From Candidatus Hydrogenedentota bacterium (lineage in GTDB: Bacteria > Hydrogenedentota > Hydrogenedentia > Hydrogenedentales > JAEUWI01), in contig JAXMOL010000006.1 in assembly GCA_034669905.1 (NCBI GenBank), positions 1 through 64,000 on the forward strand: a stretch of 64,000 nucleotides of DNA, in the 5' to 3' direction. The notes under the pieces were generated by a model, which saw nothing but the letters and a program-made list of their open reading frames with translations, was not told the origin of the DNA and did no database searches. Positions 20,906 through 36,665 of this stretch are shown piece by piece. Position numbers and translations under genes: made by a program. Positions within the stretch are counted from its first letter, which is position 1; each line of letters begins with the position of its first letter.

Positions 20906-21388
20906 ATGAAAAAGAGTGTAGCGAAACAGACCGCGATCCTTATACTTTTTCAGTTTGTATGCTTCGGCGCTGCAGCGATTGGAGGGGCATTCACCGCAAC
21001 TTCGGTCAGGACGTGGTATCTGGAAATTGCCAAGCCCACCTGGACGCCGCCCTCGTGGGTCTTCGGTCCTGTCTGGACCATCTTGTATGTCCTAATGGGC
21101 GTCTCCGCGTGGCTGGTCTGGCGTGCGGCTCCCTGGCCCAATGCACGGGTAGCACTTACGCTGTTTGGGGTGCAGTTAGTGCTTAATACGGCCTGGTCCA
21201 TTCTCTTCTTCGGTGCGCAAAATCCCGGCTTGGCGTTCCTGGAAATTCTTCTGCTCTGGTGTGCAATCGTGGCAACCATCGTCACCTTTTGGCGCCACTC
21301 CAAGACGGCATCGGTCATGCTGGCCCCCTACCTCTGCTGGAGTTCTTTCGCCGCGTTCCTGAACTACGCCATTTGGCAGATGAATTAA
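20906..21388 (+). CDS. tspO: TspO/MBR tryptophan-rich sensory protein
   Basis: WYLEIAKPTWTPPSWVFGPVWTILY, QLVLNTAWSILFFG, PYLCWSSFAAFLN. Confidence 0.95.
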   Translation: MKKSVAKQTAILILFQFVCFGAAAIGGAFTATSVRTWYLEIAKPTWTPPSWVFGPVWTILYVLMGVSAWLVWRAAPWPNARVALTLFGVQLVLNTAWSILFFGAQNPGLAFLEILLLWCAIVATIVTFWRHSKTASVMLAPYLCWSSFAAFLNYAIWQMN

Positions 21389-21444
21389 TCTGGGCATAGA
21401 ACAGACGGACGAGCTTGGGGGACCGTCGCAGCGGCAAGGCGTCC

Positions 21445-22497
21445 CTATTGCGGAGTCGCCGTCCGGGGTGCGAGCAAGAAGTCGGGGCTTTCGGTTACGA
21501 GGCAGTGGATTCCCGCGCTGGCGAAAACGGGGAAATGGGTGAGCGGGAGGGCGGTGGGCACCACGGCCTCGGCGCCGACGATGGTCTCCAGGACTTCCGC
21601 TACCGCATCATTACCACCGCTGATCACGACCGCTCCTTCGGGGGATTGGACGAGGCTGGTGGCATAGGGCAGGGCGGTGTCTGGAATCCCATGGACCATG
21701 ATGCCCGCTTCATCGCAGATGCGACGAACTACCGCCATCGATTCCGCCGCGTCGAGTGGTGCGTTCAGGGGGCCTGTTCGGTATCCGGGCCCCAGTATCA
21801 GGTGGCAGGTGCCATCCGGTCCACGGACGAGGCCTGCGGCCCGGTCGATGTGGTGGTCGTGAAAAATACCCGACAGGTGACCTTCCTGATCGATGGAGCA
21901 GAAAATTCCGGCGGGTATCTCCACGACCTGCAGACCCCGGTCCCGCAGGCGGTTGAGGACCCCTTGTTCCGGTGCCTCGTTTTTCTCGGGGTGGCGAAAG
22001 ACGATGAGGGTATCTTCACTGAACAGTACCCGCCCGCCTTCGGACCAACAGCTTGGCCAGCAGGAGACGTCCCCACGGTCTCCGACACCGGGTTTGAGCC
22101 AGGTGGGACTGGTCAGGGCGATGCCGTGGGCCGGGAGGTAGACCATCAAATCCCGGGGATAGAGAAAGGTGCTCCCCTCTTCGGGAGCGTCTATTCGAAA
22201 TGCTGGATAGCGGTCGGCGCGCAGTCGATCACTGAGTTCAGACGTTGCGGTGCTGAGATTCAGAATGCGAAAGGGCATGCCTGCGCGGAGGAGTGCGTCG
22301 AGAATCGACAAATACTCCGCATCGAAGCGACGGGTAAATTGGGCTTCATCACCGCTATCCGCGAGAACCGTGCGGGCAGTATCCAGATTTCCCAACAGGA
22401 CCCCCGGCACCTGCCGATTGGCGTGTTGCAGTTTATACTCGGGGAACCCGGTCAACCACAACCGGCCCGCCTGTGTTGACGTCATATCGTGCCCCAC
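21445..22497 (-). CDS. Pentein-superfamily (amidinotransferase / arginine or peptidyl-arginine deiminase-like) enzyme
   Basis: Ordered pentein motifs YPRD, SEGG, HID and C-terminal GIHC (Cys nucleophile). Start is GTG 22497 or ATG 22485. Confidence 0.72.
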   Translation of the reverse strand: MGHDMTSTQAGRLWLTGFPEYKLQHANRQVPGVLLGNLDTARTVLADSGDEAQFTRRFDAEYLSILDALLRAGMPFRILNLSTATSELSDRLRADRYPAFRIDAPEEGSTFLYPRDLMVYLPAHGIALTSPTWLKPGVGDRGDVSCWPSCWSEGGRVLFSEDTLIVFRHPEKNEAPEQGVLNRLRDRGLQVVEIPAGIFCSIDQEGHLSGIFHDHHIDRAAGLVRGPDGTCHLILGPGYRTGPLNAPLDAAESMAVVRRICDEAGIMVHGIPDTALPYATSLVQSPEGAVVISGGNDAVAEVLETIVGAEAVVPTALPLTHFPVFASAGIHCLVTESPDFLLAPRTATPQ

Positions 22498-22520
22498 TAC
22501 CGAACGGGTAGCTAACCGGA

Positions 22521-22763
22521 TTACTTCTTGAGCCAGGTATTTGCCCCACCGAGATTATTGATCTTGCGGATATCCCGAATGCCGACTCGAATCCCTGTAC
22601 GCGTAGCCGCCCGTTTACCGATCCGTTCCCCTACCCGTATTCCAATCCGTGCGCCACCCTTGATTTCCGATTCCGGGAGGGCTTGGGTATCCTGATCACT
22701 CACGTCTGCCGCAGCATCCCCCGGCAGGTCATTTACGGATATTTTCTTTGGTTGTTCGCTCAT
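22521..22763 (-). CDS. Double-glycine-leader precursor peptide A (80 aa), Arg-periodic core
   Basis: AAGGAGG RBS. Acidic leader ending EIKGG. Core ARIGIRVGERIGKRAATRTGIRVGIRDIRKINNLGGANTWLKK. Confidence 0.8.
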   Translation of the reverse strand: MSEQPKKISVNDLPGDAAADVSDQDTQALPESEIKGGARIGIRVGERIGKRAATRTGIRVGIRDIRKINNLGGANTWLKK

Positions 22764-23139
22764 GGTGAAGGCCTCCTTACAGCGTTTCCAGTCCGGCAAA
22801 TTGCGCGGACCGATACGGCTTGTTGCTTCAATGTCAAAATACTACCACAGAATTGAGATTTCTGCGTCCGCCGCCTTGGCATGCGCTCAGGGTAGGCCCC
22901 ATCGCATCGAGGGCAGGCCCATGATTGCAGGGGGCGTGCTCTGAAGCAACGTTGGGGGAACTAACTTTGCCGGTCTATGCGGCTGACTGCCCACAGGCGC
23001 TCTTCGTACCGGAATGAGGTCTGCAGAGTATCGTTACAGGACACAAGGGTATTGAAATGAAGTGCGCCCAGACAACCTGGTTCTTGCGGAAATATCGTAA
23101 GTGGTTGTATAAGAAGTGTTTGTAGAGATGGGGGTGTTT

Positions 23140-23155
23140 TGGCACGAGAATCGCT
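23140..23155 (+). promoter_or_regulatory. Sigma54 -24/-12 promoter upstream of peptide B
   Basis: TGGCACGAGAATCGCT with GG-N10-GC spacing, ~40 nt before the peptide ATG. Confidence 0.75.
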
Positions 23156-23192
23156 TTACCATGGCGCAGTCTTAATCATAAGGAGTATCGCT

Positions 23193-23399
23193 ATGAGCAC
23201 TAATAAACAGGATAACGAGATTAAAAACGGGCCAAAGAAACGCGTCATTCGTCTGGATGACCTGGATTCACTGGATGATGTGGTTGGTGGTAGCCAGGGC
23301 AAGCTGCTCTTTGGGGAAGAAGCGGCGCCTCAGAAGTCGCCTTTTGAGGGCGTGTTCAAACCCAACAACGGACGGGGGGGAGCTTCGGGTAAAGCCTGA
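23193..23399 (+). CDS. Double-glycine-leader-like peptide B (68 aa)
   Basis: AAGGAG RBS. PKKRVIRLDDLDSLDDVVGG leader with L(-7) and V(-4). Core SQGKLLFGEEAAPQKSPFEGVFKPNNGRGGASGKA. Confidence 0.7.
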   Translation: MSTNKQDNEIKNGPKKRVIRLDDLDSLDDVVGGSQGKLLFGEEAAPQKSPFEGVFKPNNGRGGASGKA

Positions 23400-23422
23400 G
23401 TAGCGCCAGACCTTTCTTTTGC

Positions 23423-23457
23423 GACCGCCGGAGTGTCTATTGGCGGTCTTTTTCTTT
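23423..23457 (+). terminator. Probable intrinsic terminator/attenuator after peptide B
   Basis: GACCGCCG/TGGCGGTC stem followed by TTTTTCTTT. Confidence 0.6.
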
Positions 23458-23614
23458 CATTCGCCCTTCGTAAACGAAGTGCACTCATCCATCGCGTTGA
23501 ATGGCAATGGGTGCCGGAAATTCGTGATAATCATGCGGAAACGAATTCGTTTCCAGAATCCCCACGGTGGCAATCGTCATGGTATTGCGGGGGGGGCAAC
23601 AGGAGGAAGCTGTC

Positions 23615-24706
23615 ATGACCGATGTGGATGTTTCGGCGGAGGTGGAAAGTTTGCCAATCCTCTATCAGCGATGGCTGGCGTCGATTCTGCCCGGGGGCAT
23701 GCCGCGTGAACGGATTGCAACGTGTCTGGATTGTGCCATGTGTGCCCGCACCCGGGAAGAGCATCAGACAATGTTGGGTGCCTATAATCCCGATACCAAG
23801 TGCTGCACGTATTTTCCCAACGTGCCCAACTACCTGGTGGGGCGGGCTATCGATGTGGATACTCCCGGGGCCCGGGTCATGCTCGGCTTCGTGGAATCGG
23901 GCACGACATCCGAAGCAAACGTGACCATGTGTGGGGTCGCGGCGACAGGCAAACGGTCGGCGTTGTATGATCTTGCGGGGCAGGGTGGCGGATTCGGGCG
24001 CGACCCTGATTTGCTCTGTCCCTATGCGATTGCGCGCGATACACAGGAGGGGCCCCTCTGCGGCATATGGGCGCATCGAAATTCCGTGTGCAGCACCTAC
24101 TTCTGCAAGCACGTAAACGGCGGATCGGGGCGCCACCTCTGGACGGCCATTCGGAATCTTTTTCGTCATATCGAGGCCTCCCTTTCCTGGTGGGCCATCG
24201 CCCAATTGATTCCAGAGATGGGTACCCTCATGCTCCGCCCGCCTGGCCAACAAGAAGAGCGCGTCGACAGCGTCCTTTCGCCAACGGCCTGGACCCGTTG
24301 GCCGGGCACGCGGGCCGATTTTTATCGGGCCTGCAGTGAAAAGGTGGAGGCGCTCTCCTGGGAGGAGGTCGTTGCTGTGGTGGGGTTCAAGGCCGCGCTC
24401 TATGTGGAAGAAGTGCACGCGAACTATGACCATGTCTATGGCGAAACCTTCCCCGACCCGCTACGCCCCACGACTTATACGACGATCCAGGCTGGCCATG
24501 AACGTACTACCATACAAGGTGGTGGCAGTGGTGGCAATGAACATGTCGAAGTACCGTCCATCCTGCTGCGCCTGTTGCCCTACTTTGATGGACGGTCCAC
24601 GCAAGAGGTGCTTTCCGACATTAAGGCGCGGGAGCAGGTCGGGCTGGACGTGGCACTGGTGCGCAAATTGTATGATTTTGGCATCCTGGAACGTGCCGAC
24701 GCATAA
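23615..24706 (+). CDS. Cys-rich YkgJ/FliB-like putative Fe-S/Zn protein with C-terminal winged-helix-like segment
   Basis: AGGAGG RBS. CLDCAMC...KCCTYFP...CPY...CGIWAHRNSVCSTYFC. C-terminal LLPYFDGRSTQEVL...LVRKLYDFGILE. Confidence 0.6.
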   Translation: MTDVDVSAEVESLPILYQRWLASILPGGMPRERIATCLDCAMCARTREEHQTMLGAYNPDTKCCTYFPNVPNYLVGRAIDVDTPGARVMLGFVESGTTSEANVTMCGVAATGKRSALYDLAGQGGGFGRDPDLLCPYAIARDTQEGPLCGIWAHRNSVCSTYFCKHVNGGSGRHLWTAIRNLFRHIEASLSWWAIAQLIPEMGTLMLRPPGQQEERVDSVLSPTAWTRWPGTRADFYRACSEKVEALSWEEVVAVVGFKAALYVEEVHANYDHVYGETFPDPLRPTTYTTIQAGHERTTIQGGGSGGNEHVEVPSILLRLLPYFDGRSTQEVLSDIKAREQVGLDVALVRKLYDFGILERADA

Positions 24707-25940: not shown

Positions 25941-26064
25941 TTACCGTTCGTATGCGACGTGATTCGCACGAGGAAATTTTAAGCGCAACCCAATACCCGA
26001 CTCATCGAAATCGCTTGGTCCGGGATAACGCAAGGCTCCCTGCACGGGGGTGGAGGAAATCACT

Positions 26065-26238
26065 ATGGCAACGATTGAAAACAACGATCTGAATGCTGAA
26101 GAGACCCTGAGCGAGGCCCAAGCCAAGGACGTGAAGGGTGGCGTTGCACTGCTGCTGCCCGCCGTGCAATCGGCGCGCGAAGCGGCACGTTCGAAAGACC
26201 CGAGCAGTTCGGTCGAATCCAAATCCGTCCGTCGTTAG
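26065..26238 (+). CDS. Double-glycine-leader precursor peptide C (57 aa), pilin/DUF1559-motif core
   Basis: GGAGG RBS. Leader ...ETLSEAQAKDVKGG. Core VALLLPAVQSAREAARSKDPSSSVESKSVRR. Confidence 0.82.
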   Translation: MATIENNDLNAEETLSEAQAKDVKGGVALLLPAVQSAREAARSKDPSSSVESKSVRR

Positions 26239-26284: not shown

Positions 26285-26509
26285 ATGAGCAAGATCAACA
26301 ATGAAGACCTGAACGAAAAGAAAGACGAGAAGGAAACCCTCTCCGCCGAGGATATGGAGCAGGTGAAGGGTGGCGCTGGGTACTTGAAAATCGGCGATAT
26401 TAAGGGGGAGAGCCTGAAGATTGGCGACATCAAGGGAGAAAGCTTGAAGATTCCCGACATTGCGGGTGAGAGTCAGCGGATCTCCGATGTCACCTTAAAG
26501 CGTGGGTAA
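26285..26509 (+). CDS. Double-glycine-leader precursor peptide D (74 aa), Hcp/tail-tube-motif repeat core
   Basis: GAGGA RBS. Canonical leader ...ETLSAEDMEQVKGG. Core AGY(LKIGDIKGES)2LKIPDIAGESQRISDVTLKRG. Confidence 0.85.
   Translation: MSKINNEDLNEKKDEKETLSAEDMEQVKGGAGYLKIGDIKGESLKIGDIKGESLKIPDIAGESQRISDVTLKRG
26384..26473 (+). repeat. Three 30-nt coding repeats in peptide D
   Basis: ttgaaaatcggcgatattaagggggagagc / ctgaagattggcgacatcaagggagaaagc / ttgaagattcccgacattgcgggtgagagt. Units 1 and 2 differ only synonymously. Confidence 0.9.
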
Positions 26510-26690: not shown

Positions 26691-27887
26691 TTACCGGGGC
26701 GCCTCCTGGTCACGCATATTTTCCCGGAGACTACGGAGGGGTTCAAAGGCGTATTCGATAAGGGTGCGTCGCCCTACCTGGATTCGGGCTTTGCCACCCA
26801 TGCCCACTCGCAGGAGCTGGTCCGCTCCGAGACGGTCTTTTTCGGGGGTGACATGGGCCACGAAGCGCCCCTGGTCGTTACCGGGCAGGGCGGCGGGACT
26901 CAGCCAGGTCAGTTCACCATTGACCACGCCGAATCGTTGGTACGGGAAGGCTTCAAAAAGCAGTTTCGCCGACTGGCCTTCCCGGAGCTTTGCCATGCTC
27001 CGCTCTTCCAATTGAAGATGGGCGCGGGCCGGCGCATCGGCGGGGGCGATCTGACAGAGCTCTTGCCCCACGGAAACAACGTCACCGGGGCGTTTTCGGG
27101 AGACCGAAAGGATGACCCCGCGATAGGGGGAGCGCACTGCTATAACGTCGTCTGCCACATCCTTCAGGCGCGCGTCGAGCCCTTCGAGTTGCACCGTAAT
27201 TCGAACTTCCTCCAGGGCGATTTCTTCCATCATGTGTTGGTGATCCGCATCCAACCGGGCGAGGGTAAGCTGAGCGGCCTTGAACTGCTCATCGGCCAGT
27301 GCGGCATCGAGCTCGGCCTGGGCCTGTCCGAGTTGCTGTGACAGGAGGTCGACCGTAGAGTTCAGCCCTTCGGCGGTGAGGGCCTTCATACGGTCAGAAA
27401 CATCCTGGTAGACGCTCACATGCTGGATGCGATAGGAAACCTCCCGCTCCCGCTGCTTGATCTCCGCCTCCTGGATGCTGCGGTTAATGGCGTGGGATTC
27501 CATGGCGGCGTCGCGACGCTGGCTGAGGGCCGCCAGGTCTTTTTCGAGGGTGCGCTTTTGGACGGAGAGCTCGAGAATGAGTGGGGACCGAATGGTGAAG
27601 AGCAGGGCGCCGGCCTCAACCTCGCCCCGGGTGCTTGCATAGACCTGGTCGATTACGCCCGCAAAGGGGCTCTGTATCGGGTCGGAGCCGGACTCGGGCA
27701 GCATGATGAAGGGGGCCTCGACGGTTTCCGGCCAATCGATGATGACGGATGCGACGCCCACGGCACCACAGAAAAGGATGATGAGAAAGGCGATGACCCG
27801 CGCGCTACGGAAGGGCATCTCGTAGGGGAATAACTCCGTTACTTTTCCCGCCTTGGGTCGTTCCAGATTGCTTCCGTGGGTGCTCAT
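26691..27887 (-). CDS. HlyD-family type I secretion adaptor
   Basis: N-terminal TM, IQSPFAGVI, coiled coil, RSPYRGVI, FEAFPYQRFGVVNG, RTLIEYAFEPL. Confidence 0.9.
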   Translation of the reverse strand: MSTHGSNLERPKAGKVTELFPYEMPFRSARVIAFLIILFCGAVGVASVIIDWPETVEAPFIMLPESGSDPIQSPFAGVIDQVYASTRGEVEAGALLFTIRSPLILELSVQKRTLEKDLAALSQRRDAAMESHAINRSIQEAEIKQREREVSYRIQHVSVYQDVSDRMKALTAEGLNSTVDLLSQQLGQAQAELDAALADEQFKAAQLTLARLDADHQHMMEEIALEEVRITVQLEGLDARLKDVADDVIAVRSPYRGVILSVSRKRPGDVVSVGQELCQIAPADAPARAHLQLEERSMAKLREGQSAKLLFEAFPYQRFGVVNGELTWLSPAALPGNDQGRFVAHVTPEKDRLGADQLLRVGMGGKARIQVGRRTLIEYAFEPLRSLRENMRDQEAPR

Positions 27888-27890
27888 GGC

Positions 27891-30800
27891 TTAAAAGCCC
27901 CCCTGTTGGCTTTGGAGGTAGAAGTACAGCCCTTTTCGTGCCATGAGTTCCTCGTGGGAACCCATCTCGACCACGGCACCTTTTTCCAGCACCACGATAC
28001 GGTCGGCGTTTCGGATGGTGCTCAGTCGGTGGGCGATGACCACCGCGGAACGGTTGGCCAGAATCTGGTCGAGGTTTTCCTGAATGGCCCGCTCGGATTC
28101 GCTATCCAGGGCGCTGGTGGCTTCGTCAAAAATGAGGATGGGGGGATTGTTGTAGACGGCCCGGGCAATAGCCACCCGCTGTTTCTGGCCGCCGGAAATC
28201 GCAATGCCCGTCTCCCCGACCCGGGTCTCATAGCCCAATGGGAATCGGGCAATAAACTCGTGGGCATTCGCCACGTTGGCGGCCCATGCGGCCCGTTGCA
28301 TATCGGGCTCGGGGTCACCCAGGGCGATGTTTTCGAGAATCGTGCCATCGAAAATGTAGTTGTCTTGCAGCACCAGGCCAATCTGCTGTCGCAGGTCCCG
28401 GTAGTTCAGGGTATTCAAATCAACTCCGTCAAAGTGGAGGGAGCCGGAAGTGGGTTCCAACAGACCGGCAAGCAATTTGATGAGGGTCGTTTTTCCGGAG
28501 CCACTCCGCCCCACGACGGCCACCGTCTTGCCGGGCGGAATCTCCAGGTTGATGTTGTCCAGAATGAGGGGACTGCCCGGGCCACCGTAGTGAAAGGAGA
28601 CTCCCCGTAATTCGACCCGACCTTCCAGGGTGGAGACGGGCTGCAGTCGACTGCGGTCATGGCCCTGCTCCGGCTCAAACTCGAAGATGTCGTTGAGGCG
28701 ATTCATGAGCACGTCCGACATCTGGAACTCGTCCCATAGTCCGAGCACCGTCAGTATGGGGGCGTAGGCCATGGCGACGAGGGCATTGAAGGCGACAAAT
28801 CCACCGATCGTGATCTGGCCTTCCATGACCATGTGGGCGCCAAACCAGAGGAAGAGCACGGTAGACAGATAACCGACCGCCTGAACGGCGCTGTCATAAA
28901 ACATGATCGTAAAGTTGCTTTTGAATTGGGTCTTGGCCAGGCCCAGGAATTCGTTGAGCATGCGGTCCCGAAACTGCTGTTCCCCCGCACTCGCCTTCAC
29001 GGCTTCGATACCCCGAATGGAATCAATCTGGTGCGACTGATAGCGGCCATAGCTCTCTTCCAGGCGATTGAAGAGGGGCCCCAGGACCCGTCGCGAGATG
29101 AACATGAGTCCCACATAGAAGGGCATGGTGGCGAGAAAGACGAGGAGCAATTGGATGCTGTAGACGGCCATTAAACCCAGATAGGCGCCAACCTGAACCA
29201 AGGCCAGGAGGCCCATCAGCCCGCTCTGGACGATGAACTCACGGACCTGCCGTGCGCCGGCCAGACGGCGCTGGATATCGCCGATGCGGCGACTGTTGAA
29301 ATAGCTCATGGGCAGGGCGAGCATGCGGCGTGTCAGGTGATCGAGGATGGCCGCATCAATATGCACGGCCGCAAAACTCAGCATGAAACGCTGAAGCACA
29401 TTGGCGGACAGCATGAAGCCCAGGGCCACGATCATGGCAACCACCATGATGTGCAGGGTTTCCACATCGCCGTCTACGACCACGCGGTCCACGATGACCT
29501 GGGTAAAGACCGGGAGCAGAAGTTGCAGTCCGCTCGTGATGATGGCCAGGAGGAGAATCTGCACCAGGGTGCCGCGGAAAGGTTTGATGAACTGGAAGGT
29601 CCATCCCCAGGTGCGCTGATTCTCCGGTGCCGATTCGAACGACGGCGTGTAGTCCATGAGCGCGGCGTAGCCACTCCATTTTTCCGCGAAAGTCTTTCGC
29701 GGAATGCGCTCGTAGCCTGCGGCCGGGTCAACAATGTAGACATAGCGTTTGGTGACGCGCTCGGCGACGATCCAGTGGTTGCCTTCCCAATGAACGATGG
29801 CGGGCAAGGAAATGGAATCGATACTTTCGGGCTCTACCTTGACGGCGCGGGCGGCGAGTCCCAATTCGTTGGCGGCACCGACAATGGAGCGCAGGCTGGT
29901 GCCATCCAAGGCCGTATGGGCGAGTTGGCGAATACGCGGAAGGCTGACCCGCCGACCATGGTAACGGCAGATCATAGCCAGGGCAGCGGCCCCACAATCC
30001 ATCTCGTCAATCTGGCGAACGTAGGGAACCCGTTTGCCCCAGGCCCGGGCTTTTCGAGTCGCTTTCTTTTTCGTTTTTGCGGTATCGGACGGCGCCTCGG
30101 TGTGGATCCCATCGATATTGAGGGATTCGGAATGGGCGCTCTTCGGCAGGATTTCCTGGGAGAAGTCCAGCGGCACCTTGGCCTCTGTCTGGTAGGTGTA
30201 GGCGGCCATGCGGTCTTCCATGGCCTGGGCGAAGTCGGCGTGGCCGGCCATGAGCGCCTGCAGGGCTTCCCGATTCATGCAGAGCAGGCGGCACTCGGAA
30301 ACACTCTGAACCGTCGCCGTGCGTGGGGTGCCCTGCAGGGCCGATACTTCGCCGAAATAGTCCCCCGCGCGAAGGAAGGCGACATTACGCTCAGCGCCTC
30401 CTTCCGTGACGAAGACCCGGGCGCGGCCCTCTTCGATGATGTAGAAATCGCCGGAGACTTCGCCTTCACGAACGATGGTCTCGTTGGCGGCGACCGACAT
30501 GGGCGAGAGGTGTTCGAGAAAGTCTTGTAATGTGTTGGGGGGTAAGCTCCCGAAGCCCTCGGTGGCCCGTAGGAAGTTGTGAACTTTTCGGTGGCGAATA
30601 CGCAGTTGCTGAAGGTTTCGGAGTTCCGGCGCTTCACCGAGAATGCGGTGAAAATCTACCCGGTCAAGGCGGTAGAGCCGTACGTCACCACTGGCCCGGA
30701 CGGTTGCGGTGCGGGTGCCCTCCTCCAGCAGGGCCATTTCCCCGAATTCATCCCCCGGGCGCAATACGTTCAGGGGAATTTCTTCGCCCGTTTCCCCGCG

Positions 30801-30989
30801 CTTGAAGACCCGTGCCCTTCCTTCGACCAGAATATAATAGGCATCGCCGGGATCCCCTTCACGAACGATAACGTCCCCAAAGGTGTAGGTGACTTCCTTA
30901 CAGGACTCGGCAATACGCTCTCGTGCCTGGGGCGGAAAAAACTCCAGCAGTTCGAGTTTGGCGATGATGTTCAGTTTGTCCTGGGTCAT
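27891..30989 (-). CDS. Peptidase-containing ABC transporter (C39 PCAT) with two N-terminal cNMP-binding domains
   Basis: Two cNMP domains (GDEFGEMAL...RTATV; GDYFGEVSAL...RTATV). C39 QIDEMDCG...HWEGNHW...VDPA with Cys/His/Asp intact. TMD, GRSGSGKTT, ISGGQKQR, FDEATSALD. TGATG overlap with the upstream gene. Confidence 0.95.
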   Translation of the reverse strand: MTQDKLNIIAKLELLEFFPPQARERIAESCKEVTYTFGDVIVREGDPGDAYYILVEGRARVFKRGETGEEIPLNVLRPGDEFGEMALLEEGTRTATVRASGDVRLYRLDRVDFHRILGEAPELRNLQQLRIRHRKVHNFLRATEGFGSLPPNTLQDFLEHLSPMSVAANETIVREGEVSGDFYIIEEGRARVFVTEGGAERNVAFLRAGDYFGEVSALQGTPRTATVQSVSECRLLCMNREALQALMAGHADFAQAMEDRMAAYTYQTEAKVPLDFSQEILPKSAHSESLNIDGIHTEAPSDTAKTKKKATRKARAWGKRVPYVRQIDEMDCGAAALAMICRYHGRRVSLPRIRQLAHTALDGTSLRSIVGAANELGLAARAVKVEPESIDSISLPAIVHWEGNHWIVAERVTKRYVYIVDPAAGYERIPRKTFAEKWSGYAALMDYTPSFESAPENQRTWGWTFQFIKPFRGTLVQILLLAIITSGLQLLLPVFTQVIVDRVVVDGDVETLHIMVVAMIVALGFMLSANVLQRFMLSFAAVHIDAAILDHLTRRMLALPMSYFNSRRIGDIQRRLAGARQVREFIVQSGLMGLLALVQVGAYLGLMAVYSIQLLLVFLATMPFYVGLMFISRRVLGPLFNRLEESYGRYQSHQIDSIRGIEAVKASAGEQQFRDRMLNEFLGLAKTQFKSNFTIMFYDSAVQAVGYLSTVLFLWFGAHMVMEGQITIGGFVAFNALVAMAYAPILTVLGLWDEFQMSDVLMNRLNDIFEFEPEQGHDRSRLQPVSTLEGRVELRGVSFHYGGPGSPLILDNINLEIPPGKTVAVVGRSGSGKTTLIKLLAGLLEPTSGSLHFDGVDLNTLNYRDLRQQIGLVLQDNYIFDGTILENIALGDPEPDMQRAAWAANVANAHEFIARFPLGYETRVGETGIAISGGQKQRVAIARAVYNNPPILIFDEATSALDSESERAIQENLDQILANRSAVVIAHRLSTIRNADRIVVLEKGAVVEMGSHEELMARKGLYFYLQSQQGGF

Positions 30990-31969
30990 CACGATGTGGC
31001 ACCCACCCATTGAATATGCTCGTGGACAAGTGGCCGTATGGCGTCGGTCACGATCCGATCAGAGAGCAGGGAACAGGTGCGTTCGTCCGCGAGGTCGGGC
31101 TCCTTTTTTTCATGGACATACATGAGGATGTGGCGCCCCTCCTGCTCAAAGGGGGGGAGCACACTCCCGGGTGCTGCGGAGAGTGCCGCCGTCTGAAGGG
31201 AGGGGGAGGGGAGCTGATTAAGGAGTACCTCCTGACGCATAAATTCTCCCTTGGCCATTTCACACACCTTCTCCATGGAGAGTCCGTCTTCCGTAATACA
31301 AAGTACTGCTTCTCGCACGGCGGCGTCCGTATCGAAGATGCCGATCTCACAGCGGAGCAGGAAGAAGTTCTGATATTGTACGCGGAGGGCGCTTTTCAAT
31401 CGGGCGGTGCTCAACAGGTCGGTGCGGAATTCTTCATAGCGCTGGCCATAGGCGTTCAGTCGTTCGGGCCACGTGGCAAGATCAGCATCGATGTGGTCTG
31501 CGCCCTTCGACGAGCAGACGATTGCAACGATTTCCGCGAGTTGTTGGCACCATGGTTGGAAGCTGCCGGAGAAAACCAGGTCGGGCCAGAGCACCTCATC
31601 CACGTCTTGTGCAGTGATCGTTTCTGCTGCGGCAGGGCGGGTATGGGCGTTGGACGTGTAGTGTTCACGACAGGCTTCTCGCTCCAGATAGTCGCCAAAG
31701 GCCTCAATAGAAACACCGTGGGCATCCATCCATTCCTGGGTAGCCTGGGCGGAGCGGAGGCCGAGGTCTCTTCGAAAGGCTTCGGAACGGGCCTGCAACA
31801 GGTCGTCTGCCACCTGAAAGCCATCGGCCTGGGCCTGCGCCAGGGCGGACAAACGCTCTCGGGCCTGCAATCGCACCGAATCGAGTTGCCCCCATTCTTC
31901 TGCGGCGGCCAATACGTGTTCGGCGCAAAATACCACGCCGCCACAAGAAAATAGAGAAACACCGCTCAA
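30989..31969 (-). CDS. SurA/PpiC-related chaperone-like protein of the peptide export operon
   Basis: LQARSEAFRRDLGLRSAQATQEWMDAHGVSIEAFGDYLE resembles the N-domain of PpiC-related proteins found beside PCAT/HlyD. Degenerate parvulin-like C-terminus. Translationally coupled to the PCAT. Confidence 0.6.
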   Translation of the reverse strand: MSGVSLFSCGGVVFCAEHVLAAAEEWGQLDSVRLQARERLSALAQAQADGFQVADDLLQARSEAFRRDLGLRSAQATQEWMDAHGVSIEAFGDYLEREACREHYTSNAHTRPAAAETITAQDVDEVLWPDLVFSGSFQPWCQQLAEIVAIVCSSKGADHIDADLATWPERLNAYGQRYEEFRTDLLSTARLKSALRVQYQNFFLLRCEIGIFDTDAAVREAVLCITEDGLSMEKVCEMAKGEFMRQEVLLNQLPSPSLQTAALSAAPGSVLPPFEQEGRHILMYVHEKKEPDLADERTCSLLSDRIVTDAIRPLVHEHIQWVGATS

Positions 31970-32467: not shown

Positions 32468-33415
32468 GTGGTGGAAGACAAGGAAGACCGATTTCTGGGA
32501 TGCCTGCTGGGATTGGCCGCAGGCGATGCGCTGGGTACCACCCTGGAGTTTAAGCCGCCGGGCAGTTTCACACCCATCGCCGACATGGTGGGCGGCGGAC
32601 CCTTCGAGTTGGAAGCGGGACAATGGACCGACGACACGTCGATGGCCTTGTGTCTGGCAGAGAGCCTGATAGAAACCGGGCGCTTTGACCCCGGTGATCA
32701 GATGAAACGCTATACCCAATGGCGGGAAGCAGGGCATCTTTCCAGCACCGGACACTGCTTCGACATTGGAAACACCGTTGCGAGTGCTTTGTCCCGATTC
32801 GCTGGGACCGGTGAACCCTTCAGTGGCTCGACCTCACCGAACTCCGCCGGCAACGGCTCCATCATGCGCCTGGCCCCCGTTCCCATGGCCTATGCGGATA
32901 AGCCGGCAGTGGCGATGGAGAAGTCGGCGGAGAGTTCTCGCACGACCCACGGTTGTGAAGAAGCGGTCGATGCCTGTCGTTACTTTGGCGGACTGCTTGT
33001 GGGGGCCTTGAACGGCGCGACCAGGGAGGCGTTGCTCGCTTCCCGGTACGCACCGGTAGCGGGTTATTGGGAAAGCCATAGGCTGTGCCCAAAGATTGAT
33101 GAAATCGCTGCGGGTTCCTTTAAAGAAAAGGAGCCACCCCAGATTGCGGGGACGGGGTATGTGGTGGCATCCCTCGAAGCGGCCCTGTGGGCCTTTCGTT
33201 CCAGTGCGACCTTTGAGGAGGGCGCGTTGCTCGCCGTTAATCTCGGGGACGACGCCGACACGACGGGTGCGGTATACGGACAGATCGCGGGAGCGTATTA
33301 TGGGGCACAGGGTATTCCCGATTCGTGGCGGAAGAAGCTCGCCATGGGTGACCTGATCGAGGCGTTTGCGAAGAAACTTTGTGGATGGAGAGACGAACGA
33401 CTTGATACAGGTTGA
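32468..33415 (+). CDS. ADP-ribosylglycohydrolase (DraG/ARH family)
   Basis: GLAAGDALG, WTDDTSM, GNGSIMR, SRTTH, NLGDDADTTGAVYGQIAGA. Confidence 0.95.
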   Translation: MVEDKEDRFLGCLLGLAAGDALGTTLEFKPPGSFTPIADMVGGGPFELEAGQWTDDTSMALCLAESLIETGRFDPGDQMKRYTQWREAGHLSSTGHCFDIGNTVASALSRFAGTGEPFSGSTSPNSAGNGSIMRLAPVPMAYADKPAVAMEKSAESSRTTHGCEEAVDACRYFGGLLVGALNGATREALLASRYAPVAGYWESHRLCPKIDEIAAGSFKEKEPPQIAGTGYVVASLEAALWAFRSSATFEEGALLAVNLGDDADTTGAVYGQIAGAYYGAQGIPDSWRKKLAMGDLIEAFAKKLCGWRDERLDTG

Positions 33416-33825: not shown

Positions 33826-33960
33826 ATGCACTCCGAAAAACTGCACTTGGATCTCGATAGGGTCAACGACACGGGGCGAAGCCCGCTAGAGATCGCGCAA
33901 CATACGGGCAACGAAGAAATGATTGCGCTTGTCGAAAGAATCATGAGGGAAACAGGTTGA
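33826..33960 (+). pseudogene. Single ankyrin-repeat fragment (44 aa)
   Basis: MHSEKLHLDLDRVNDTGRSPLEIAQHTGNEEMIALVERIMRETG matches the G-x-(T/S)PL-x-x-A-x-x-x-G-x-x-E-x-x-x-L ankyrin pattern. In-frame stop just upstream. Confidence 0.5.
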
Positions 33961-36665
33961 GTTATTCCATTTCGAGATACATCATTCCGTGCGTAGTCCT
34001 GATGGCCGGGGGACTCCTGCCGTCTATTTCTGCGACCGCCCAAACGGTGGTCACCTTCCCCGACCGTGCACTCGACGGACTTGTGCGCTGGGCGTTGGAC
34101 AAGGGGCCGGAGGATGTAATCCTGGACAGCGACATGGCGGAGCTCACGGAGTTGGTGGATATATTCCCCGGTGGGGAGCGAATTCGCCACCTTGATGGTC
34201 TCGAATCTGCCTCCAATCTTACCTTGCTTGCCCTGGAGGATAATTTACTGGAAGACTTGAGCCCATTGGCCGGATTGACACAGCTTCAAGAATTGTATGT
34301 CTCCGAGAATCGCATTTCCGATTTGACGCCCCTGGCCGAGCTGACCGCACTGAGAATTGCTATCGCGAACGACAATCGAATCTCCGATATATCCCCCTTG
34401 GCGAACTTGACGGCATTGACGGTACTTAGACTCAATGAAAATGCCATCCAATATCTGGAAGGGCTCACGAACTTAGAGCAGTTGACTTATCTGGGTCTTC
34501 AGGATAATCGCGTGTCGGACGTGGGGCCCCTTGAGGGGCTTGCCCAGCTCGAGGAGGTGAACGCCGGGGACAACGAGATCGTGGACCTTGCGCCCTTGTT
34601 GAACAATGCGCAGGCTGGCGTATTAGAGCGCATCTACGTCGGCCATAACCTGCTCGATGCTACGGCGGTGTGTACTATCATCCCGGAACTTGATGCGCTG
34701 GGCGTGTACGTTGGCTATTTGATGGAAGTAATCCCTACGCCCTATCCGCGTCCTGATCTTAGCATCGTTTGCGACGATCCCATGGGCGACCGCGATCAGG
34801 ATGGCCTGAGCAATCTGGATGAGGTGAACTTTGGTGCCAGCATGGACGTGGCCGATTCAGACAGCGACGGCTACCTGGACGGCGCCGAGGTGGCCGCCGG
34901 TAGTGACCCGATAGACGATGGCGCCTTTCCCGGGGCCGTCCCCGTAATTATCCCTGACCCGGATTTGGAGTCTGCGGTTCGGAATGACCTGGAGCGGTAC
35001 CGCGGCGACCTCTTCGTGCATCACCTGGAATCGTTGACCACATTGTTTGCTTCGGACCGGGATATCGTTTCGCTTGAAGGGATCGAGTACGCGGCAAATC
35101 TGGAAGTGTTGCATTTGGGCGGCAATAGGATTGGGGACGTTTCGCCACTGAAGGGCCTCGGAAAGCTGCGGACCTTGGACTTGTCGGACAATGGTATAAC
35201 GGACGCGGCCCCGATTGCCGAGTTGAAGCGTATCAGAAGTCTTCATGGCCTGGACCTGTCAGGCAATGCGATTGTGGATGTGGAGCCGATTACGGAGTTG
35301 GAAGGTCTTAACAGCCTTACGCTCCATGATAACCGGATTGAGGATGGGGCCCCGCTGGGCCGTATGAAGGCCTTGGTTTCTCTGGGCTTGAACCAAAATC
35401 CACTGCAGTCTATAGATTTCATCCGTGAACTCAATCCACTCATGATTCTGCGCTTGTCCGGCGTAGGTTGTAGCGACATCTCCGCCGTAGCTGCCCACCC
35501 CGGACTCCAGATACTGGAACTTGCGGACAACGGCATTGTGGACATCAGTCCGCTTGAAGGACTCTATCTGTCGGAGCGGCTGGATCTCCGAAACAACCGT
35601 ATTCGTGACATCAGGCCCCTTCGAAACAAGTTTCTCCTGGCCAGACTCGAGTTGGATGGGAACGAGATATTTAACCCGGGGCCCTTAGTTACCCTGCAAA
35701 CGCTCAGAGGGCTCTCAATCGCAGACAATAACATCACCGGGGCCAATGCGATTGGTACGCTTGGCCGTCTCATCTCCATTAACCTCCGCGCCAACGAACT
35801 GCGTGACGGTGGTTTTGTACGGGGACTTCGGAATAGTTGGAGGTTGAATCTTTCAAAGAACCGACTGTCCGTCCTTCCGCCGGTGAATGCACTGAGTGAG
35901 CTGCGGGAACTCGACATCAGCGACAACGAGATATCAATCATGGAGTCGCTCGACGTGCCTTTTGTCGATGATAGTCTGGATCTGAGTGGAAACCAGTTCA
36001 CGGAAATTCCGCCGCCCCTGGACACCAATCTGGCTGTCGCCGTAGTGGAGCTGTCGCGAAATGCCGTGCCGCTGGACACCATCTGCGCCTACGTAAACCA
36101 GGCGTTCGCCGGTTCCGAGCCGATGACATTGCCCGACGAAACGGTGCGGTTGCTCGACATATGTGCCGCCCCCGATGCGGATATTGATATGGATGGTCTG
36201 GGCGCCTATGACGAATTGGTGGCGGGCAGTGATCCGGAAGCGTCCGACACCGACGGCGATGGCTTCTCTGACGGCGAAGAGGTGGCCGCGGGGACCTATC
36301 CCTACCTGGCGGACAGCTACCCCATCGAGCATCCCAGCACGATGGCCCCCGGGGAGATGGCCGAGGTGTTGCTCGGTCAGTTTGAGACGCTCCATAGCGG
36401 AGGGACGGGCTACCGGCTGGAGTACGGGGAATGCCAGCAGGCTATCGACGGCTTGACCTATGCCCAGTTTGAAGTGTTGGACGCGAACCAGAGCGGCGGC
36501 CTCAGTGAGCTGGAGCTGGAAAAGGCTCTGACGGCGGCGGTGGGTTGTAATCTGGAGATGGACAGCGCCAAGCATGCATTCCATGACAACAAGAGCGACT
36601 TGGCGGTGCTGGGGCTGGCGTTGATGACCTTGGTTGCCATGGGGCGCCGTGGTGGGGATATCTAG
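33957..36665 (+). CDS. Internalin-like leucine-rich-repeat surface protein with Ca-binding DxDxDG repeats, EF-hand-like motif and C-terminal TM anchor
   Basis: Signal peptide. Two LRR blocks each capped by (F/I)PDxxL. DSDSDG/DTDGDG repeats, DANQSGGLSELEL, hydrophobic C-terminus followed by RR. Confidence 0.9.
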   Translation: MSYSISRYIIPCVVLMAGGLLPSISATAQTVVTFPDRALDGLVRWALDKGPEDVILDSDMAELTELVDIFPGGERIRHLDGLESASNLTLLALEDNLLEDLSPLAGLTQLQELYVSENRISDLTPLAELTALRIAIANDNRISDISPLANLTALTVLRLNENAIQYLEGLTNLEQLTYLGLQDNRVSDVGPLEGLAQLEEVNAGDNEIVDLAPLLNNAQAGVLERIYVGHNLLDATAVCTIIPELDALGVYVGYLMEVIPTPYPRPDLSIVCDDPMGDRDQDGLSNLDEVNFGASMDVADSDSDGYLDGAEVAAGSDPIDDGAFPGAVPVIIPDPDLESAVRNDLERYRGDLFVHHLESLTTLFASDRDIVSLEGIEYAANLEVLHLGGNRIGDVSPLKGLGKLRTLDLSDNGITDAAPIAELKRIRSLHGLDLSGNAIVDVEPITELEGLNSLTLHDNRIEDGAPLGRMKALVSLGLNQNPLQSIDFIRELNPLMILRLSGVGCSDISAVAAHPGLQILELADNGIVDISPLEGLYLSERLDLRNNRIRDIRPLRNKFLLARLELDGNEIFNPGPLVTLQTLRGLSIADNNITGANAIGTLGRLISINLRANELRDGGFVRGLRNSWRLNLSKNRLSVLPPVNALSELRELDISDNEISIMESLDVPFVDDSLDLSGNQFTEIPPPLDTNLAVAVVELSRNAVPLDTICAYVNQAFAGSEPMTLPDETVRLLDICAAPDADIDMDGLGAYDELVAGSDPEASDTDGDGFSDGEEVAAGTYPYLADSYPIEHPSTMAPGEMAEVLLGQFETLHSGGTGYRLEYGECQQAIDGLTYAQFEVLDANQSGGLSELELEKALTAAVGCNLEMDSAKHAFHDNKSDLAVLGLALMTLVAMGRRGGDI

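Follow-up and report, generated by a model that had tools for sequence, protein, structure and literature searches.

A pentein-fold enzyme encoded behind an arginine-periodic precursor peptide in Candidatus Hydrogenedentota: a candidate leader-guided peptide-arginine deiminase

The closest described systems to the one that is presented here concern arginine or related residues of peptides that are made by the ribosome and modified after translation (RiPPs): the citrulassin peptidylarginine deiminase (PAD), a member of PF03068, is encoded far from the citrulassin cluster and converts one arginine, with no PADs inside lasso operons according to the accessible part of the report (Harris et al., 10.1101/2020.07.16.207027); the peptide arginases OspR, FlmR and OhkR (pfam12640), as well as KgrD, form ornithine by means of a Mn-ureohydrolase fold (available text of PMC12703449); homocitrulline is installed by a carbamoyltransferase (available text of PMC13174530); and amidinotransferase genes are located in pheganomycin-like and thiovarsolin (VarS) clusters, where the accessible sections of the sources give no shown role on the peptide (PMC6511847, PMC8939145). 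As far as these sources extend, the citrulline-forming RiPP enzyme of the searchable literature is the distally encoded PAD that acts on a single arginine. Here, we have analysed a 64,000-nucleotide stretch of a Candidatus Hydrogenedentota bacterium (“the window”; contig JAXMOL010000006.1), in which a small gene for an arginine-periodic peptide is followed, on the reverse strand, by the gene of a pentein-fold enzyme. The pair is real and conserved, and there is good support for reading it as a RiPP cassette whose maturase belongs to an unnamed pentein family; our favoured reading, with a rough probability of 0.55, is that the enzyme is a cluster-encoded, leader-guided peptide-arginine deiminase, the product of which would be a poly-citrullinated exported peptide. 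That the enzyme acts on the arginines of the precursor, whatever the product, we consider highly probable.

In its logic, the cassette is closest to the peptide arginases, which, as described in the available text, are also cluster-encoded, act on several core arginines and have leader-bearing precursors; they differ in being Mn-dependent, in carrying the motifs DXHXD, EEH and LDIDLDY and in releasing urea, whereas the enzyme of the window is a pentein with a catalytic cysteine. With the citrulassin PAD it shares a pentein fold with Cys/His/Asp chemistry and the conversion of RiPP arginine to citrulline (proposed, in the present case), but it has no PF03068 match and is a single domain of 346 residues; its gene directly follows that of the precursor, whose leader it is predicted to bind and which confronts it with up to eight arginines. 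The pheganomycin-like and thiovarsolin clusters are similar in that pentein genes are found in RiPP-related clusters and, for thiovarsolin, in the repeated, arginine-containing cores; in the accessible descriptions, however, the pheganomycin amidinotransferases are grouped with genes for a non-proteinogenic building block, the deletion of varS left thiovarsolin production unaffected, and both systems go with an ATP-grasp ligase, which is absent from the cassette.

The remaining penteins, i.e. agmatine deiminase/PPAD (PF04371), arginine deiminase (ADI, PF02274), DDAH, ArgZ/AgrE/AstB and the amidinotransferases, have the same propeller (Z 12.5-16.6) and the same catalytic order, but the enzyme is only 9-15% identical to pentein structures in structural alignments, 0 of 104 family members match the Pfam families of these proteins, and EGG is followed by arginine; to our knowledge, none of these pentein families uses a leader peptide. 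The peptides that are exported by C39 transporters after a double-glycine leader are comparable in the [IV]xGG leader end and in the C39-ABC transporter with HlyD adaptor, here located 4-8 kb away; the difference is that the transporter of the window carries two cNMP-binding domains and is probably the exporter of many peptides encoded at scattered sites. Taken as a whole, the cassette resembles a peptide arginase cluster with putative PAD-type chemistry, and is a member of neither family. In our literature search, with most subscription journals outside its scope, we came across neither an account of this family nor one of a pentein maturase encoded within a cluster.

The precursor (Table 1) has a ribosome-binding site, AGGAGG, located 8 nt ahead of its ATG, a leader whose C-terminus is ...ESEIKGG, and the core ARIGIRVGERIGKRAATRTGIRVGIRDIRKINNLGGANTWLKK, which contains eight arginines, four lysines and two acidic residues. 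The arginines are located at core positions 2, 6, 10, 14, 18, 22 and 26, plus 29, exactly as the first-pass annotation had listed them, and in five of the seven spaced units a glycine occurs two positions after the arginine. A run of seven arginines at a spacing of four occurred in 2 of 200,000 shuffles of the core, and at any spacing from 1 to 7 in 7 of 200,000; in the genome, 61 of 138,594 six-frame segments contain a seven-arginine run at a spacing of four, and among the 40 of these 61 that were listed, low-complexity frames predominate and the precursor open reading frame (ORF) alone passed a filter for a double-glycine site and R-x-G units. The seven 12-nt DNA units of the core have a mean identity of merely 48%, so that there is no recent DNA tandem repeat and the pattern is held at the protein level; the shuffles and the low unit identity together rule out chance or a DNA-repeat origin of the spacing.

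Nine matches have come from a protein search with the precursor: the query, a fragment, the second and weakly periodic peptide that genome G069 encodes, and six others. Runs of 5-8 arginines at a spacing of four are found in six of the seven full-type precursors, and a five-residue gap in the seventh; across their 37 arginine units, the arginine is followed by Ala, Val or Ile in 31 and then by Gly in 32, and the spacing of four is maintained in the homologues despite the gain and loss of units. The IRK segment is conserved in the four genome-linked precursors. The G069 peptide (L024:4506-4721), located 5' of the periodic one, is a degenerate precursor with the same leader motif and merely three arginines. 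The leader ending is common to the precursor and to 11 other small ORFs of the genome; none of the curated leader models matches the precursor. The locus has a ribosomal precursor with a conserved leader and core, and a putative maturase that is co-encoded with it and predicted to recognise it.

The downstream gene carries the pentein motifs that had been read from the sequence, i.e. YPRD, EGGR, HID and GIHC, in the ORF 21445-22497. The 23-nt distance from the precursor that had been proposed along with them holds if the GTG at 22497 is taken as the start; the called protein and its closest homologues begin at the ATG at 22485, which is preceded by GGGG, so a gap of 35 nt is likelier. The AlphaFold2 model of the enzyme (mean predicted local distance difference test score, pLDDT, 87.8; alignment of 18 close homologues) bears out the pentein fold: every listed row of the Foldseek search is a pentein, and in the VIA-align comparison with 48,161 chains ranks 1-18 are all penteins (Z 16.6-11.0), followed by eIF6 (8.9), with unrelated folds at 3.8 or below. 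The best match is the DDAH 3bpb (Z 16.6, root-mean-square deviation 3.7, 237 residues aligned), next to AgrE (15.9), agmatine deiminase (15.8), ArgZ (15.8) and the amidinotransferases (13.5), with PADI6 the weakest pentein match (11.0). No meaningful match among solved structures emerged from sequence searches with the enzyme, the best rows being designed helical repeats.

We have assigned the catalytic roles by motif order. The order Asp-Glu-His-x-Asp-Cys of the enzyme corresponds to Asp204/Glu257/His313/Asp315/Cys440 of ADI, as given in the available text (PMC3474736), and the family has the core set of the guanidino-modifying superfamily, i.e. a cysteine, a histidine and two acidic guanidine-binding residues (available text of PMC8826395). 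The catalytic set is conserved, with Asp112, His212, Asp214 and Cys328 kept in at least 103 of the 104 aligned rows and Glu149 in 79. An hhalign comparison with the agmatine deiminase of the same genome places the three motifs in register, but is non-significant (probability 0.6%). Two positions close to the nucleophile set the near clade apart: the residue directly ahead of the cysteine is a histidine in 17/17 clade rows versus 23/87 outside rows, i.e. a clade-specific active-site trait, while the residue five positions before the cysteine is Ser, Ala or Gly in 13/17 near-clade rows and Lys or Arg in none of the 17, versus Lys or Arg in 32/87 outside rows. P. aeruginosa ADI has an arginine five residues ahead of its cysteine, according to the accessible part of the source; the replacement is a weak hint that the pocket of the near clade may be more open.

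The main rival to citrulline formation is ornithine formation, in which the same dedicated maturase, as a dihydrolase (ArgZ/AgrE/AstB-like) or an amidinotransferase, would strip the amidino group (-42.02 Da), perhaps onto a core lysine (+42) or a small amine; we regard this as unlikely. AgrE and ArgZ score level with the best fold matches, the amidinotransferases match as well and also carry the PRD and HID motifs, the core offers four lysines, and the conversion of arginine to ornithine is an established RiPP outcome, by way of arginase-fold enzymes in the available text (PMC12703449). Against it, no acylating or ligase gene adjoins the cassette in three genomes, and a lysine acceptor is disfavoured by the lysine content of the distant loci described below, which is 3.8% in both adjacent and non-adjacent cores. 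Dihydrolases may also differ in having an asparagine instead of the first guanidinium-binding aspartate, where the enzyme has Asp112. DDAH-type (dimethylarginine hydrolase) activity is unlikely, since Asp214 is present in 104/104 rows where DDAH has a lysine two positions after the catalytic histidine (available text of PMC11659421).

The enzyme is a member of an unnamed pentein family, and not of the PAD, ADI or amidinotransferase families: neither the enzyme alone nor its 104 aligned relatives match any Pfam or NCBIfam family. In particular, 0/104 members match PF03068 (PAD_C) at E 0.05; PF04371 has no Pfam match in the enzyme or the 104 members, with an Atlas lead of 0.87 only; and PF02274 matches none of the 104 members and is absent from the genome, the large helical insertion that forms the extra domain of ADI also being absent from the 346-residue model. 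A peptide arginase (pfam12640) is rejected by the pentein fold and the lack of a Pfam match, and housekeeping agmatine catabolism by the presence of an ordinary agmatine deiminase (PF04371), encoded elsewhere in the genome on contig C39. The enzyme is, accordingly, not a PF03068 PAD, not a PF04371 deiminase and not a peptide arginase.

Within the phylum, the enzyme was found in four of 135 genomes, which belong to a single genus, and the precursor profile finds the peptide in the same four of the nine genomes of the genus. As the profile was built from the four positive genomes, it is the five negatives that are informative, and these include a single-contig genome that is 96% complete. The precursor is the gene directly upstream of the enzyme in all four positive genomes and in the metagenome loci L001 and L002; the relatives are labelled Candidatus Hydrogenedentes or Hydrogenedentota. 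In G063 and G069 the pair adjoins fatty-acid beta-oxidation-like genes (read from their N-termini), and the 17 and 15 kb retrieved around it contain no transporter; with the exporter on other contigs of these two genomes, the pair appears as a portable cassette that is served by a shared exporter. The plasmid collection gave no match, and no sigma-70-like promoter was found in 21200-23600.

The arrangement of an arginine-rich ORF 35 nt upstream of an enzyme with an arginine-related fold would also suit an arginine-sensing leader peptide, i.e. an attenuator that controls a catabolic enzyme, and in this genome a small hairpin (-10.6 kcal/mol) overlaps the ribosome-binding site of the enzyme. The hairpin, however, is not shared by the other three loci that were folded, the arginine codons are ordinary (no AGG or AGA), no terminator-like site was found between the two genes, and the leader motif, the double glycine and the glycine two positions after each arginine are conserved at the protein level; we have rejected the attenuator reading on the codons, the hairpin and the terminator search, and consider it extremely improbable.

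The prediction of the complex lends support to an enzyme that binds its precursor through the leader. The ESMFold2 run of enzyme and precursor scores 0.82, and the best of three controls 0.00; the same mark was attained by 116 of the 157 solved complexes and by 2 of 215 mismatched pairs, counts that are rough, since our own alignments were used. Agreement between the runs extends to at least 65% of the contacts, with a partner pLDDT of at least 51. The contacts of highest confidence run from residues 8-18 of the leader to residues 66-73 and 93-97 of the enzyme, and include columns that are invariant in each alignment. The interface as listed comprises residues 3-22 of the leader, 59-70 of the core and 112, 149, 152, 208-212 and 328 of the enzyme, which suggests that core residues 59-70 may touch the active site. 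No solved chain resembles the enzyme or the precursor in sequence. Pentein-peptide complexes have been solved, and a memory effect may possibly have shaped the active-site part of the model.

The confident core contacts, residues 59-70, fall on the conserved segment, and together with the retained IRK and the clade-specific histidine ahead of the cysteine they leave room for another chemistry: a Cys-thiouronium intermediate could join an arginine to a peptide amine (a lysine or the new N-terminus) in a guanidine cross-link (-17 Da), or the enzyme could act on a single arginine in the GIR-x-IRK segment, with the repeat serving another purpose. We know of no precedent for a guanidine cross-link formed in this manner, and the survival of the four-residue spacing through unit gain and loss fits repeated action on equivalent sites; this alternative appears very unlikely to us.

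The family extends beyond the genus. The full search at E 0.001 has given 218 clusters (50% identity), 150 of them listed, and scans with one nine-residue pattern have added 19 metagenome and 11 genome loci, the family being under-sampled. In a quick tree of 132 rows, 111 of them without known context, the peptide-linked enzymes form one branch of 37 rows (SH-like approximate likelihood-ratio test support 100, length 0.81), of which the genus-level group is a sub-branch; the distant members of the branch are 32-36% identical, and their records are labelled Aminicenantes, Deltaproteobacteria, Desulfobacteraceae and Thermodesulfovibrio. Their clusters contain genes for B12-radical SAM, SPASM and YcaO/TfuA proteins, GT41 and GT2 glycosyltransferases and a PF02636 methyltransferase, together with peptidyl-prolyl isomerase, outer-membrane efflux and transporter genes. 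Twelve distant loci were scored, with near-duplicates (L008, L011, L015, L019) and contigs shorter than 1.6 kb without a peptide found (L004, L005, L006, L012) omitted. Precursors with a double-glycine leader are present in 9/12, in eight within 500 bp of the enzyme, and the nearest cores contain 35 arginines in 263 residues (13%) versus 23 in 685 (3%) for the 16 other cores of these loci (Mann-Whitney p 0.002). Homologues flanking arginine-rich peptides, which the first-pass annotation had asked for, are seen in the loci of the genus and, as arginine enrichment, in the distant loci.

The enzymes of the distant branch carry an N-terminal extension that resembles the precursor leader: when the leader profile was applied to 232 N-termini, P0020 ranked first (E 7.8e-7), and most of the top 19 rows belong to these penteins or to further enzymes of the clusters, often at weak scores. 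The leader-like start, without a double-glycine site, is seen at L033:3372-4949, L007:2095-3534 and L032:5047-6846 and in the penteins of L005-L010 and L031-L034; the types of enzyme with a start that resembles the precursor leader of their own cluster are GT41 glycosyltransferase, B12-radical SAM, PF02636 methyltransferase and pentein. In four loci (L007:8139-8324, L009:1627-1806, L013:639-818, L034:1256-1435) the precursors are located tail to tail with the enzyme gene and share the core motif S[LF][ND]YG[RG]I, which we take to resemble the C-terminal strand of Hcp.

Several observations weigh against a peptide-arginine deiminase. The four cassette genomes are congeners, and thus not independent, and the strict four-residue spacing is confined to the genus-level subgroup; the cores of the distant loci are not periodic. 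The nearest core has no arginine in L031 and two in L007, a precursor is missing from the 2 kb around the enzyme in L032, and 3/12 distant loci have no precursor (contig ends); three of the eight adjacent cores are close kin, leaving six independent cases, of which four exceed every non-adjacent core. The leader of the precursor is longer than, and unlike, the other double-glycine leaders of the genome. DDAH, the AgrE/ArgZ dihydrolases and the agmatine deiminases lie within one Z unit at 11-15% identity, and with such ties the fold match cannot choose between hydrolase, dihydrolase and transferase. Lastly, 87 of the 104 aligned rows fall outside the peptide-linked branch, and the precursor is absent at all eight outside-branch members whose neighbourhoods were checked (for some of them only 1.5 kb on each side), so that the ancestral substrate would be something else.

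The larger part of the family (L035-L037, L039-L042, L016-L018) is apparently located in small Patescibacteria-type genomes, where it is patchy and peptide-free, with the catalytic residues intact. Of the phylum sample around G135, 3/301 genomes carry the family, including the seed, with one record labelled Berkelbacteria; around G138, it is 1/401, the seed only.

The peptide-free relatives among housekeeping genes of Patescibacteria-type genomes speak for an enzyme that acts on a free guanidine (arginine, agmatine or methylarginine) or on other proteins, the peptide being an unmodified, cationic, exported fellow traveller; bacterial PF03068 PADs do act on distally encoded substrates, in the accessible part of the report (10.1101/2020.07.16.207027), and the unmodified core (+10) might itself be antimicrobial. 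The strict pairing of enzyme and precursor, the predicted leader binding with controls at 0.00, the arginine enrichment of adjacent cores and the leader-like N-termini in other phyla, and the separate agmatine deiminase of the genome all argue against it, and we judge it distinctly unlikely.

Returning to the peptide-arginine deiminase, the earlier proposal of a dedicated enzyme that iteratively modifies the periodic arginines gains support from the fold, the catalytic set, the arginine-rich neighbours and the predicted complex. The precursor would be made with its 37-residue leader, as seen in the sequence; the pentein would grip the motif I-x3-DLP-x2-A-x-A with a surface (residues 66-73 and 91-100 in the model) that lies close to its N-terminus, and leader binding would deliver the core to the active site. 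By analogy with pentein chemistry, Cys328 would attack the guanidino carbon of a core arginine held by Asp112 and Asp214, with the release of ammonia, and His212, backed by Glu149, would activate water to give citrulline (+0.98 Da), the step being repeated across several x-R-[AVI]-G units. Cleavage after the double glycine and export of the core would then probably fall to the genus-wide C39 ABC transporter and its HlyD adaptor. Full conversion would lower the side-chain charge of the core from about +10 to +2, with 8 of 12 positive side chains lost, leaving a near-neutral repeat rich in Ile, Val and Gly. As a guess at its use, a cationic membrane-binding peptide might be kept neutral and resistant to trypsin-like proteases, to serve as an extracellular signal or a self-assembling peptide.

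If this is true, a small, single-domain, leader-guided editor of many arginines would define a new RiPP class and a type of peptide maturation not described before, would add a function to an unnamed pentein branch, and could offer a programmable means of introducing citrulline or ornithine at chosen sites, e.g. for defined citrullinated antigens and protease-resistant peptides. A broader proposition, for which we would put the odds a little below even, is that a pentein family recruited once from peptide-free Patescibacteria-type relatives has become the leader-guided maturase of such a class, in which many arginines are rewritten (as poly-citrulline or guanidine cross-links), the x-R-x-G repeat forms an ordered, charge-switched assembly, and the leader copies on enzymes of other phyla act as an activator or export tag.

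Table 1. Coordinates of the cassette, its sequence elements and the neighbouring export genes in the window (GG, double glycine).
Feature	Position	Strand	Basis
Precursor peptide gene, 80 aa (P0169)	22521..22763	-	ORF; homologues; 4/9 genus genomes
Ribosome-binding site of precursor	22772..22777	-	sequence
Double-glycine leader, residues 1-37	22653..22763	-	[IV]xGG end in 6/6 aligned precursors; putative cleavage
Leader motif I-x3-D-L-P-x2-A-x-A, residues 8-19, predicted enzyme-binding site	22707..22742	-	invariant alignment columns; lowest-error contacts in complex model
Core, 43 aa: x-R-[AVI]-G units, then conserved IRK segment, Trp-x-x-Lys end	22524..22652	-	sequence, alignment
Pentein-fold enzyme, 346 aa (P0001), unnamed family	21445..22485	-	model pLDDT 87.8; top structure matches penteins (alternative GTG start 22497)
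Asp112 of PRD, putative guanidinium-binding Asp	22150..22152	-	103/104 family rows
Glu149 of EGGR, putative triad acid	22039..22041	-	17/17 clade rows, 79/104 overall
His212-Ile-Asp214, putative general acid/base and second guanidinium-binding Asp	21844..21852	-	His 103/104, Asp 104/104
Cys328 of GIHC, putative nucleophile	21502..21504	-	104/104
Divergent small ORF, GG-type leader, Arg-poor core; likely exporter cargo	23193..23399	+	ORF, sequence
Two GG-leader peptides, likely exporter cargo outside the pentein cassette	26050..26238, 26285..26509	+	sequence
HlyD-type adaptor	26691..27887	-	family match
Peptidase-containing ABC transporter (two cNMP-binding domains, C39, ABC)	27891..31010	-	Pfam; likely shared leader peptidase/exporter, putative action on precursor
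PpiC-related protein	30989..31969	-	weak TIGR04500 match, 48.8 bits, cut-off 180

The features of a substrate of peptidase-containing ABC transporters are present, i.e. a double-glycine leader together with a C39-ABC transporter in the genome. The transporter has an orthologue in eight of the nine genomes of the genus, including all four cassette genomes, and is likely common to the precursor and at least 11 other, arginine-poor peptides: the 11 other cores with a double-glycine leader that were found in the genome contain 19 arginines in 359 residues, versus 8 in 43 in the periodic core.

The divergent small ORF has a leader of the form RLDDL...VVGG followed by KLLFG, is conserved in L001, L002 and L022, and heads an operon with a Cys-rich protein and a sigma-54 activator. 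The Cys-rich protein, of about 360 residues (23567-24706, +; CxxCxMC, KCCTY), has no Pfam family and adjoins peptides with Hcp-like cores; it has a paralogue in the genome (G000 C3:176111-177337) and a relative at L033:5171-6256, and the Atlas places it next to unnamed Myxococcota clusters (0.97) and offers a weak lead to YkgJ. We regard it as a candidate maturase or receptor; membership of the pentein cassette is rejected, as it does not adjoin the pair in G063 or G069 and its paralogue is located beside an Hcp-like peptide.

Dispersed double-glycine-leader peptides carry core pieces that resemble Hcp, the type VI tube protein (YLKIGDIKGES, YKLKNVVVSS); YLKIGDIKGES occurs three times in the window copy, 26285-26509, and other such peptides are located at G000 C3:177568, C47:63321 and 63568, C38:80855 and 81078, and C1:240941 and 241604, as well as at L033:2956-3135. 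The L033 peptide matches the Pfam family T6SS_HCP with E 5.5e-6, the window core merely with E 0.5, and our literature search on Hcp-like peptides with double-glycine leaders found no paper. The peptides at 26050-26238 and at G000 C28:43650-43847, with double-glycine leaders, have the core motif LLLPAVQxxREAAR and no Pfam match; the motif presumably resembles Planctomycete prepilin-like (DUF1559) proteins. Further along the window, a gene for a 902-residue leucine-rich-repeat protein that also contains TSP3 repeats and has a hydrophobic tail at its C-terminus (33957-36665, +) adjoins an ADP-ribosylglycohydrolase gene (32468-33415).

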